Below, piece by piece: positions 56,414 to 60,744 of a stretch of DNA of 64,000 nt. A model generated the notes under the pieces. That model saw only the letters and a list, made by a program, of their open reading frames with translations. It was not told the origin of the DNA and did no database searches. Each line of letters opens with the position of its first letter. Position 1 is the stretch's first letter. Source of the stretch: Eledone cirrhosa (Eukaryota); contig OZ024753.1 of the NCBI GenBank assembly GCA_964016885.1, positions 6,820,001 to 6,884,000 on the forward strand. The letters are read 5' to 3'. A program made the translations under genes and the position numbers.

Positions 56414-56508
56414 AATCCAATTTCAGTGAAAGATAAACGGTATACAGAGTCAAGATAAAATATTAAACAAATAATGAACAAACAATTCCTTATATTAAAC
56501 AAAAAAAG

Positions 56509-56663
56509 TTCACTATTTAACGATCGTTTCTAGGGCATATATGTGCTATAATTGGTATGCATATTTAACAGATCTATGTACAAAATTATACAAAATTATA
56601 TAAATTATCAAGATTAAATATACATACCTAACACATATATACGCCGTCTTCAGAAATAATGAA
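56509..56663 (-). ncRNA. Type I hammerhead ribozyme (family G)
   Basis: Mirror of 60536-60690. Confidence 0.78.
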
Positions 56664-57435
56664 GTATATTTATTGATAATAACAACAATTCAAAATATCA
56701 GTTCAAAATTGACCAATGAAAACACAAAGGGTTAAAAAGCAGTTTGGTGTGTGTATATACATGTAAAACCCTACACACATTTTACAATAATGTGCGTATA
56801 ATATGTATGTGCATACTAAAAAGATGGATGCAAATAAAAAATTTCAAGGTTAATATCTCTGTAAGCTTAATGCGCTGATAAGAAACGCAATGATACTTAT
56901 GTAGTCAAGCATATAAATATATTTTTTTCATACTCACACATATCAGTATAATCACACATACATGTGCGTATATATATAAATATACACATAACCACGAACA
57001 CACAAACAAACACACACACACCCCCCACTCACATTTATATATGTGGATATAAAATCATAAGCAAATAGAAATTAAGTCACTCACATAAACACACTGGTAC
57101 ACACATTTCAAGATCAAGATACAGAAATTAGGTGGGAGGGGGGGGGAGGGGTCAGTATTAGGTTGTCAGACAGACAGCCTAATATAAATGTATCTATAAA
57201 TTATGAAAAATAAAAAAATAAAAACAATAAAATATATTACATATAATATAATGTACATACGCATACAGATATACATACACATACGTACATGTACGCGCAC
57301 ATAGAGATATCTACACATACATACATACACACATACCTATACTGTCATACACACACATACATTTACACGAACATACACATACACATATAAAAAGATAAAA
57401 ATACGGACACACACACGCGCAACACATACACACAT

Positions 57436-57488
<53 letters not shown>

Positions 57489-57616
57489 TATACACACACA
57501 CACATAGACTCATATATATATACATACACATACATATACTTATACATAAACATATATATCCCACACTCATACCACCATGAAAACACATACAAACATCCAG
57601 ATGCATATATATATAT

Positions 57617-57650
<34 letters not shown>

Positions 57651-57876
57651 AACATACACACACGTACACATATATGCATATATACATACATATATACACA
57701 CTTACACATATATATATATATATACACACACACACATAAAATACAGACATGCACATATATATATATATATATATATATATACATTTCATTACCCTTATAT
57801 ATACACATAGTACATATACATACACAACCTCACTTATACACATATACACATAAGTTATATTACAATAATAATAAAG

Positions 57877-57913
<37 letters not shown>

Positions 57914-58052
57914 TATACACACATATACACATATACATACATACACATACATATACATACATACATACACATACATACATACATCTAAATATAAACATAT
58001 ATAAATACACACATACGAATAAAGACATATATTCACACATAGACACCTATAT

Positions 58053-58107
<55 letters not shown>

Positions 58108-58973
58108 TACACATACATACACATATACATATACATACACATATATACATATATACACACGCACACACATACAGACACACATACACACTCACACACATAT
58201 ATATATATATATATATAATATATATATATGTATGTGAGTGTGCGCAAATACATACATATATATACACACGCACATACAAAACACACACAAACACATACAT
58301 ATGCATACATGCACACACACACACATATATCACATAGATACGAAGATAAACATATAAATAGAGAGACATACAAATATATACAGAACCCATATACACATAC
58401 ATGCAAACACTCATATACATATATACATATATACACACATATATATTCCTAAACCCCCCCTTTCCCCCATACTATTATCATCTGTTTTTGTAAGTGTATA
58501 TGTATGAATTTGGGTAGATGTATGAATTTGGGTAGATGGGTGTCTATATAGTTTTTTTGGTATTTATTTCTAGATATAAAAATACATATATGAGCATGTA
58601 AATATGAATGTAAGATTGAGTGTGTATATATGATTGTACATACATATGTATGTATATGTATGTATATATATGTATTATATATGTACGTGTATGTGAATGT
58701 GTGGTATATATATGTGTAGGTATATGTATATATGTGTGCGTATGTGTATGCTTGTATATAGGAATATATATGTGTGTATATATGTATATATGTATATGAG
58801 TGTTTGCATGTATGTGTATATGGGTTCTGTATATATTTGTATGTCTCTCTATTTATATGTTTATCTTCGTATCTATGTGATATATGTGTGTGTGTGTGCA
58901 TGTATGCATATGTATGTGTTTGTGTGTGTTTGTATGTGCGTGTGTATATATATGTATGTATTTGCGCACACTC

Positions 58974-59016
<43 letters not shown>

Positions 59017-59100
59017 AGTGTGTATGTGTGTCTGTATGTGTGTGCGTGTGTGTATATATGTATATATGTGTATGTATATGTATATGTGTATGTATGTGTA

Positions 59101-59157
<57 letters not shown>

Positions 59158-59296
59158 ATATAGGTGTCTATGTGTGAATATATGTCTTTATTCGTATGTG
59201 TGTATTTATATATGTTTATATTTAGATGTATGTATGTATGTGTATGTATGTATGTATATGTATGTGTATGTATGTATATGTGTATATGTGTGTATA

Positions 59297-59333
<37 letters not shown>

Positions 59334-59559
59334 CTTTATTATTATTGTAATATAACTTATGTGTATATGTGTATAAGTGAGGTTGTGTATGTATATGTAC
59401 TATGTGTATATATAAGGGTAATGAAATGTATATATATATATATATATATATATATGTGCATGTCTGTATTTTATGTGTGTGTGTGTATATATATATATAT
59501 ATGTGTATGTGTGTATATATGTATGTATATATGCATATATGTGTACGTGTGTGTATGTT

Positions 59560-59602
<43 letters not shown>

Positions 59603-59718
59603 GCATCTGGATGTTTGTATGTGTTTTCATGGTGGTATGAGTGTGGGATATATATGTTTATGTATAAGTATATGTATGTGTATGTATATATATATGAGTC
59701 TATGTGTGTGTGTGTATA

Positions 59719-59767
<49 letters not shown>

Positions 59768-60535
59768 ATGTGTGTATGTGTTGCGCGTGTGTGTGTCCGT
59801 ATTTTTATCTTTTTATATGTGTATGTGTATGTTCGTGTAAATGTATGTGTGTGTATGACAGTATAGGTATGTGTGTATGTATGTATGTGTAGATATCTCT
59901 ATGTGCGCGTACATGTACGTATGTGTATGTATATCTGTATGCGTATGTACATTATATTATATGTAATATATTTTATTGTTTTTATTTTTTTATTTTTCAT
60001 AATTTATAGATACATTTATATTAGGCTGTCTGTCTGACAACCTAATACTGACCCCTCCCCCCCCCTCCCACCTAATTTCTGTATCTTGATCTTGAAATGT
60101 GTGTACCAGTGTGTTTATGTGAGTGACTTAATTTCTATTTGCTTATGATTTTATATCCACATATATAAATGTGAGTGGGGGGTGTGTGTGTGTTTGTGTG
60201 TTCGTGGTTATGTGTATATTTATATATATACGCACATGTATGTGTGATTATACTGATATGTGTGAGTATGAAAAAAATATATTTATATGCTTGACTACAT
60301 AAGTATCATTGCGTTTCTTATCAGCGCATTAAGCTTACAGAGATATTAACCTTGAAATTTTTTATTTGCATCCATCTTTTTAGTATGCACATACATATTA
60401 TACGCACATTATTGTAAAATGTGTGTAGGGTTTTACATGTATATACACACACCAAACTGCTTTTTAACCCTTTGTGTTTTCATTGGTCAATTTTGAACTG
60501 ATATTTTGAATTGTTGTTATTATCAATAAATATAC

Positions 60536-60690
60536 TTCATTATTTCTGAAGACGGCGTATATATGTGTTAGGTATGTATATTTAATCTTGATAATTTATA
60601 TAATTTTGTATAATTTTGTACATAGATCTGTTAAATATGCATACCAATTATAGCACATATATGCCCTAGAAACGATCGTTAAATAGTGAA
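60536..60690 (+). ncRNA. Type I hammerhead ribozyme with long stem II (family G)
   Basis: ttcattattt-CTGAAGA-cggcgtatatatgtgtta...tagcacatatatgcccta-GAAA-cgatcg-TT-aaatagtgaa. 10-bp stem I, predicted cut after 60680. Confidence 0.8.
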
Positions 60691-60744
60691 CTTTTTTTGT
60701 TTAATATAAGGAATTGTTTGTTCATTATTTGTTTAATATTTTAT

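Follow-up and report, generated by a model that had tools for sequence, protein, structure and literature searches.

A 4.3-kb fold-back with hammerhead-like motifs in both arms and a degenerate microsatellite block in Eledone cirrhosa, resembling a Penelope-like element insertion

Toward the end of a 64,000-nt stretch of the Eledone cirrhosa genome (assembly GCA_964016885.1, contig OZ024753.1, positions 6,820,001 to 6,884,000; hereafter the window, numbered from its first letter) lies a non-coding insert that forms a 4.3-kb mirror-image fold-back, in which a left arm (56455-58451) faces a right arm (58759-60744) across an unpaired loop (Table 1). An original prediction, made from the letters of this DNA, had proposed two ~2-kb arms that are reverse complements, and this is confirmed: aligned globally, 56452-58451 and the reverse-complemented 58759-60747 are identical in 1983 of 2004 columns. 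The same prediction had the arms differing in microsatellite lengths and a few substitutions. The former holds for four of the seven insertions or deletions within the mirror, which are whole repeat units; the latter does not, since only one substitution was found. The loop has the strand bias of the right arm (dinucleotides TG 43 versus CA 6, bases G 63 versus C 24) and is therefore the 5' surplus of that arm. The junction at 58451/58452 carries a 307-nt loop and lacks a palindrome.

The two outer ends of the insert are unlike each other. The right arm ends at a (TA)n array interrupted by TT, while the left end is concealed by an assembly gap. As the original prediction stated, only the left arm has an additional 3' extension: its 41 nt (56414-56454) match the tail of a smaller copy of the same family elsewhere in the window (43356-43392), except for the outermost 7 nt, which differ from the family. 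Judged by the small copy, the full tail runs 134 nt past the point at which the right arm of the large fold-back ends, and stops beside (AT)n; from this length, the gap (56214-56413) is expected to hold a further ~93 nt, if the tail is complete. A head-to-head joined, inverted, 5'-truncated copy is the arrangement known from insertions of endonuclease-positive (EN+) Penelope-like elements (PLEs), as is a tail on one end only, though here the gap cuts the tail.

Table 1. Positions of the fold-back, its parts and other repeats in the window.
Feature	Coordinates	Strand	Basis
Left (tailed) arm, 5'-shorter element copy	56455..58451	-	arm alignment
Right (tail-less) arm	58759..60744	+	arm alignment
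Unpaired loop, 307 nt, 5'-most part of right arm, C-rich run at start	58452..58758	+	strand polarity; arm alignment
First 41 nt of family tail, one-sided 3' extension	56414..56454	-	matches small-copy tail 43356-43392
200-N assembly gap hiding left boundary	56214..56413	.	sequence
(TA)n array interrupted by TT, likely insertion target	60745..61432	.	sequence
Type I hammerhead-like motif, right arm, predicted cut after 60680	60536..60690	+	descriptor search; folding
Type I hammerhead-like motif, left arm, predicted cut after 56519	56509..56663	-	descriptor search
Second copy of stem I 5' strand	60721..60730	+	sequence; RNA folding prediction
Degenerate (TA/TG)n block, 1.35 kb	58602..59950	+	alternating-step and repeat scans
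Mirror copy of degenerate microsatellite block, about 1.2 kb	57250..58451	-	arm alignment; repeat scan
Complex non-coding body, 585 nt	59951..60535	+	composition; frame scan; Pfam
Complex body beside ribozyme, multi-copy family sequence	56664..56950	-	public-run depth and variants
Small same-family fold-back	42968..43489	.	similarity; motif search; tail comparison
Last 44 nt of family tail, alone in TA array	61433..61476	-	44/44 identical to 43446-43489
Short fold-backs	30275-30675, 41042-41455, 33023-33137, 30110-30224, 37558-38204		window
Short fold-backs, continued	51746-51965, 38970-39753, 41491-41880, 55360-55935, 63826-64000		window
190-nt SINE-like repeat	345-960, 2529-2716, 4977-5716, 7272-7467, 10817-11012		window
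190-nt SINE-like repeat, continued	19486-19620, 32045-32724, 42008-42510, 45079-46700		window

Between the loop start and the right-arm motif lies the body of the element (58452-60535, 2.08 kb), which had been predicted to be non-coding and is so: no stop-free frame longer than 56 codons occurs in 59951-60744, and elsewhere in it the only such frames are dinucleotide read-through frames. Similarly, the tail has no frame above 43 codons, and five short frames gave no Pfam family above the cut-off. The single frame with reverse transcriptase (RT) and GIY-YIG endonuclease that marks an autonomous PLE is absent, and the insert is for this reason not filed as an autonomous PLE or under a PLE clade. 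The body was also said to be built of microsatellites, which describes only one portion of it. In 58602-59950, alternating purine/pyrimidine steps make up 78-93% of each 150-nt bin, as in a degenerate (TA/TG)n block, while 59951-60535 is ordinary complex DNA (59% alternating steps, 2% perfect repeats) and 58452-58600 is likewise complex. Degenerate repeat thus amounts to 65% of the body, and perfect repeats of at least 12 nt account for 16.2% of it versus 15.6% of window positions 1-56200, so the further notion of an RNA made largely of microsatellites is not upheld; the body looks like the ordinary background of this genome. A search for complex 18-mers of the body elsewhere in the window returned 0 of 917, a count that is uninformative given a 64-kb sample. 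Two segments of the body with C runs looked homologous (score 66 versus 48 +/- 5, reached in 3 of 300 shuffles), but this was not accepted, as both are of low complexity.

Each arm contains one type I hammerhead-like motif. A descriptor for this ribozyme type matched nine times in the window, compared with none in nine of 10 block shuffles and one in the tenth, and a stricter-core search also finds the motifs of both arms. In the right-arm motif, stem I pairs 60536-60545 with 60681-60690 (10/10), followed by the core CUGAAGA (60546-60552), a helix II of 116 nt, GAAA (60669-60672), a helix III that is the palindrome ACGAUCGU, and the cut triplet GUU; CUGANGA, GAAA and NUH are accordingly placed around helices I-III as in a type I hammerhead. 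The ribozyme region folds with z = -5.0, none of 200 shuffles being equally stable, and no Rfam family was found in the window at gathering scores. The family has a third copy of the motif, located by the descriptor search at about 43020-43170 (-), within the small fold-back. Two more lone hammerhead-like motifs with palindromic helix III occur at 19122-19186 and 23652-23731 (-), with no evident fold-back.

The original prediction placed hammerheads at both outer ends of the insert. There is indeed a motif in each arm, but between the predicted cut and the end of the insert there remain 64 nt on the right and at least 105 nt on the left. With the cut sites interior on both arms, the insert was not copied from a ribozyme-terminated RNA, as had been proposed; the copied RNA was uncut. 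A candidate reason for this is a second copy of the stem I 5' strand downstream of the motif. Folding predictions give stem I a probability of ~0.8 in an RNA that ends 12-35 nt past the cut and 0.00 from 51 nt onward, and favour strand takeover by 60721-60730 by 4-5.5 kcal/mol. Stem I of the small copy likewise drops, from 0.83 to 0.00, and that of a second family does so weakly. In the folding model, 60721-60730 would capture the 3' strand of stem I and thereby keep the ribozyme unfolded in a long RNA.

The small fold-back of the same family has the same ends as the large one. Its tail-less arm (-) carries the full ribozyme and ends 14 nt before the tail-less arm of the large copy, while its tailed arm is truncated inside helix II and holds the complete tail (43356-43489); the junction, read from the sequence, is a 3-nt ATG overlap. 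At both family loci, the tail-less arm is the 5'-longer arm, and the loop belongs to it. Arms of the same locus do not differ (0/155 and 0/152 at the two loci), whereas the loci differ from each other at 10 of 151-154 positions; the large copy is thus 6.5% diverged from the other family copy in the window, with its own arms identical in that comparison. A second family behaves similarly, with 0-2 differences within a locus versus 4-5 between loci. More short fold-backs occur in the window. They belong to several families and carry a tail at only one of their two ends in (TA)n, and several have hammerhead-like cores. Eleven other fold-backs were hand-picked from lists of the window's self-comparison: in ten of them, one arm end lies 0-22 nt from (TA)5 and the other 75-161 nt away, and the eleventh extends beyond the window edge. 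Among older fold-backs of the window, the arms have diverged (rows of 80-91% identity). No conserved hairpin was shown for the tails, five of which were folded (z from -2.1 to +0.3).

Fragments of tail also occur near the large fold-back. The lone piece at 61433-61476 is probably a separate, very short insertion, flanked by two TT-interrupted (TA)n arrays of 685 and 683 nt (60745-62159). Aligned directly, these arrays score 477 versus 454 +/- 10, a value reached in one of 200 unit shuffles, and their run lengths are unmatched by eye; the pair may possibly be a long target duplication, or chance. On the other side, the 54 nt at 56160-56213, which separate (AT)n from the gap, are complex DNA. 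They begin with GTAG, as do the tail ends at 30275, 41042 and 61433, and are likely the tail end of another element concealed in the gap.

Four public sequencing runs (X1, X4, X5 and X21), of 23 listed, were compared with 56414-56950 only, as 984 contigs for X1, 197 for X4, 39 for X5, and 5566 raw reads for X21, a reduced-representation DNA library of another sample in which 93% of reads continue into unlike sequence. All 30 bins of this stretch are covered in 4/4 runs. Summed depth, which is not a copy number, falls in X1 from about 735,000 at the ribozyme to 10,000-17,000 at 56900-56950 (about 45-70-fold) and in X21 from about 1,780 to 42-52 across the same span (about 35-40-fold). Variants reach up to 11 contigs per site in X1, and X4 and X5 each have two distinct ones; the body is therefore multi-copy over its first 290 nt next to the ribozyme. 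Pieces tile into the ribozyme (56630-56694, 56668-56736, 56683-56833 and 56707-56927), and loose ends before 56421 run into the tail of the small copy in 4/4 runs. That the interior might be single-copy and unlinked to the ribozyme is thus refuted for 56666-56950, given its many copies and its tiled connection to the ribozyme in 4/4 runs.

The same data place the large copy within its family. Of the 40 sites listed (86 sites in total, 46 further ones being unlisted), 25 carry in this copy a letter other than that of the X1 majority, while the small copy has the majority letter at ten or so of those 25; the large copy is therefore the diverged one. Both of its arms share all 24 majority-departing letters that fall in the mirrored part. 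The 25 differences, read on the sense strand, comprise A-to-G 7, U-to-C 3, G-to-A 5, C-to-U 4 and transversions 6, without a signature of adenosine-to-inosine hyper-editing among them. Two further signals were set aside: a depth peak of X21 at 56702-56773 consists mostly of unrelated AT-rich reads whose loose ends agree poorly, and a 19-nt ribozyme pattern matched metagenome contigs at one locus (L001), on a GC-rich microbial or viral contig that is otherwise unlike the window, a match attributed to chance. A run search found part of 58452-60744 in 20 of 23 rows, with a best share of 0.64; many of the words are generic microsatellite, and the shares were not used.

We consider it probable that the fold-back consists of head-to-head copies of one non-coding, hammerhead-bearing repeat, made in trans, within one event, by a PLE-type enzyme from a single uncut RNA and inserted into a (TA)n array. 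An RNA-copied insertion of at least 2.3 kb, as the original prediction had it, remains the best reading. In general terms, such an insertion can be rationalized into the following steps. (i) A slightly diverged donor copy would be transcribed through body, ribozyme and tail, the RNA including the 1.35-kb degenerate microsatellite block. (ii) The ribozyme would stay uncut, possibly via the downstream stem I repeat capturing the partner strand. (iii) The endonuclease would nick both strands of the (TA)n target, and each target 3' end would prime copying of the same RNA. (iv) Copying from an inner start site would yield the tail-less arm of 2.29 kb, and copying from an outer one the tailed arm of at least 2.04 kb. 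(v) The two complementary DNA ends would then join, the surplus of the longer one being left as the 307-nt loop. The insert works like a PLE-mobilised non-autonomous element, and we file it neither as an autonomous PLE, nor as a member of a clade, nor as a retrozyme.

Several observations weigh against this reading. No RT frame linked to this family occurs in the window, so the mobiliser is judged from its footprint; the enzyme, the single RNA and the two-ended priming are what we infer from the structure. At 134 nt, judged by the small copy, the tail exceeds the 30-40 nt of described PLEs. The left arm extends 41 nt beyond the right arm and then meets the 200-N gap, so that the left boundary is unseen, and three odd-length insertions or deletions within the mirror, in which the extra base is always in the left, gap-side arm, look like consensus errors. 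None of the listed public pieces spans the whole 537-nt test stretch (56414-56950). At five sites, about 1% of these 537 nt, the window letter occurs in no X1 contig, so the exact copy is not confirmed in X1, whose contigs drop rare variants; the four of these letters that lie within the mirrored part are shared by both arms. Finally, the base of helix II is a C-A apposition and lacks the conserved G10.1-C11.1 pair next to G12. The small copy departs in the same way, which makes this a family trait. As that pair is not in place, the motif is classed as hammerhead-like and its ribozyme activity is uncertain.

An assembly artefact, in which a single arm was mirrored by fold-back reads or by a join of two haplotypes beside the gap, would account for the gap at the end of the left arm and for odd-length insertions confined to the gap side, and no spanning read has been seen. 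It would also explain why a copy that departs so often from its family majority has a single substitution between its 2-kb arms. We nonetheless regard it as unlikely. A mirrored read would enter the same (TA)n flank, yet the left arm enters the family tail, which is confirmed at this arm by the small copy and by the loose ends in 4/4 runs. Locus-specific letters reach within 25 nt of the tail junction and leave no room for a mis-join, and the same end asymmetry is found in 10/11 short fold-backs far from gaps.

Quite unlikely, too, is an old insertion whose arms were homogenised by gene conversion, or in which one arm arose by a later inverted duplication at the DNA level, with the block grown in place. 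The five letters absent from X1 could be read as its age marks, since four of them are common to both arms, and the block looks like ordinary decayed repeats of this genome. However, a diverged donor accounts for the shared letters in one step, and the older fold-backs of the window do have diverged arms. Gene conversion would have to cover the full 2 kb to both junctions, and a DNA-level duplication cannot give one arm a tail. Inversion by the same enzyme through self-priming on an antisense template, a model proposed by Arkhipova et al. (2013) for head-to-head PLE repeats with junction palindromes (PMC3846280), would yield identical arms, but we hold it to be very unlikely: a 307-nt loop and not a palindrome occupies the junction, a tail could not come from fold-back copying of an arm that has none, and the loop belongs to the tail-less arm at both family loci. 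Least probable of all is a truncated autonomous element, in which the body would be a long spacer and the coding frame of the PLE would lie further 5'. In its favour, the captured host DNA of Adineta vaga Pen1 separates frame and 3' repeat by 0.9-1.5 kb (PMC3846280), and depth declines steadily 5' of the ribozyme as in 5' truncation. Against it, 2.08 kb free of frames leaves no room in a Hydra-type element, generally under 3 kb, and the tail has no frame above 43 codons, whereas the Penelope/Poseidon frame is described as starting in the ribozyme or repeat.

In published PLE insertions, one copy is inverted and 5'-truncated, a single end bears a tail, and assemblies often break there; the Hydra clade, whose elements generally stay below 3 kb in total length, carries hammerheads and targets (TA)n (Craig et al. 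2021, PMC8557442). Work with a purified PLE protein showed that it nicks an AT-rich target on both strands and extends each of them, that copying begins at two sites within the RNA, by which the tail is defined, and that uncut RNA is preferred (Frangieh et al. 2024, PMC11167929). The insert shares with the pseudo-long-terminal-repeat (pLTR) insertions of EN+ PLEs the head-to-head 5'-truncated copy, the one-end tail, a hammerhead in the terminal repeat, an insert that spans the ribozyme cut site, and, at its visible right end, an AT-rich or, as in the Hydra clade, (TA)n target. It departs from them in having no RT/endonuclease frame in 2.3 kb, the longer tail, a 116-nt helix II, and 2-kb arms that are mostly non-coding degenerate repeat. 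PLEs also move non-coding host DNA in trans, as reported for Penelope repeats in Adineta vaga (Arkhipova et al. 2013, PMC3846280), where kb of non-coding DNA lie upstream of the 3' pLTR, with an inverted arrangement and a tail, and are mobilised through the terminal repeat. There, however, the cargo is enclosed by two direct pLTRs or follows a reading frame, and target-site duplications are frequent, whereas here no upstream pLTR was seen, the cargo is mirrored, and at least 290 nt of body are common to many copies.

The motif itself can be compared with the minimal hammerheads of metazoan PLEs (Cervera and de la Pena 2014, PMC4209133), which have an extra base after A9 and a palindromic helix III, show weak activity and act as dimers. 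Both are type I with a long helix II, form opposite-strand pairs, and share that extra base and a helix III suited to dimers. The published opposite-strand pairs are 100-700 bp apart, compared with 3.9 kb here, where helix II is far longer and G10.1-C11.1 is not adjacent to G12 (a C-A apposition or a UA insertion). Non-LTR retrozymes (Cervera and de la Pena 2020, PMC7229834; Li et al. 2026, 10.64898/2026.07.22.740005) are similarly non-coding, with a type I hammerhead, and presumed to depend on PLEs. They consist of 150-450 bp units in direct tandem, each with its own ribozyme, while the insert has no tandem unit and one motif per 2.3-kb arm. Microsatellites that ride on transposable elements have been reviewed (PMC9659126), and here, too, simple repeats are dispersed inside a mobile element. 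The described cases (e.g., DINE-1, PMC4067079) are miniature inverted-repeat transposable elements and short or long interspersed elements (SINEs, LINEs) with short repeats, whereas here the block is compound, measures 1.35 kb and lies within a PLE-type insert whose likely target is a repeat of that kind. No description of kb-scale microsatellite cargo in a PLE-type insert was found in the literature searched, most subscription journals being outside its coverage, and passages of PMC8126689 and PMC13282606 contain nothing on this structure. In summary, the structure itself is known, as are PLEs that capture non-coding host DNA and microsatellites that hitchhike, and the insert is an unusually long example.

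Other features of the window are of a different kind. Its commonest repeat is a 190-nt SINE-like sequence with about 20 copies or pieces, 72-94% alike and in some cases arranged as inverted pairs; we take it to be like the octopus SINEs. A 131-codon frame (49766-50161) without a Pfam match presumably resembles the end of the restriction-like endonuclease of a non-LTR retrotransposon. The DNA that follows this frame (50129-50180) is similar to the 80-nt unit repeated in tandem at 3264-4275 (87% over 52 nt), and 62512-62712 holds two copies of a 102-nt unit, 77% alike. The metagenome contig L001 mentioned above encodes a 937-codon proline-rich frame (1739-4552) among virus-like genes.

If the fold-back is real, ~1.2 kb of degenerate microsatellite was doubled here through copying and not by slippage in place, the block being passive cargo. 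The odds are about even between a block that belongs to the family consensus and one that only this donor captured. The block begins 585 nt from the ribozyme, and depth already falls steeply over the first 290 nt, a sign that few family copies extend to it, which makes a large genome-wide contribution of such block copying to microsatellites unlikely. We give a low probability to a bolder version, in which the consensus of a kb-long non-coding PLE parasite includes the 1.35-kb (TA/TG)n block and would seed its own (TA)n landing pads, and in which a built-in decoy strand would restrain the ribozyme so that the RNA is copied whole and uncut. If this were true, each long insertion would plant one or two new (TA)n arrays, and a measurable share of the genome's compound microsatellites would arise in this way. 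The locus would be notable only if the block proved to be the family consensus at many loci. Its long arms are rich in private letters, and the donor locus would show whether the two arms have a single RNA origin and whether read-through picks up host microsatellite. In such genomes, compound microsatellites can be copied as blocks, which is relevant to marker design and to assembly gaps.

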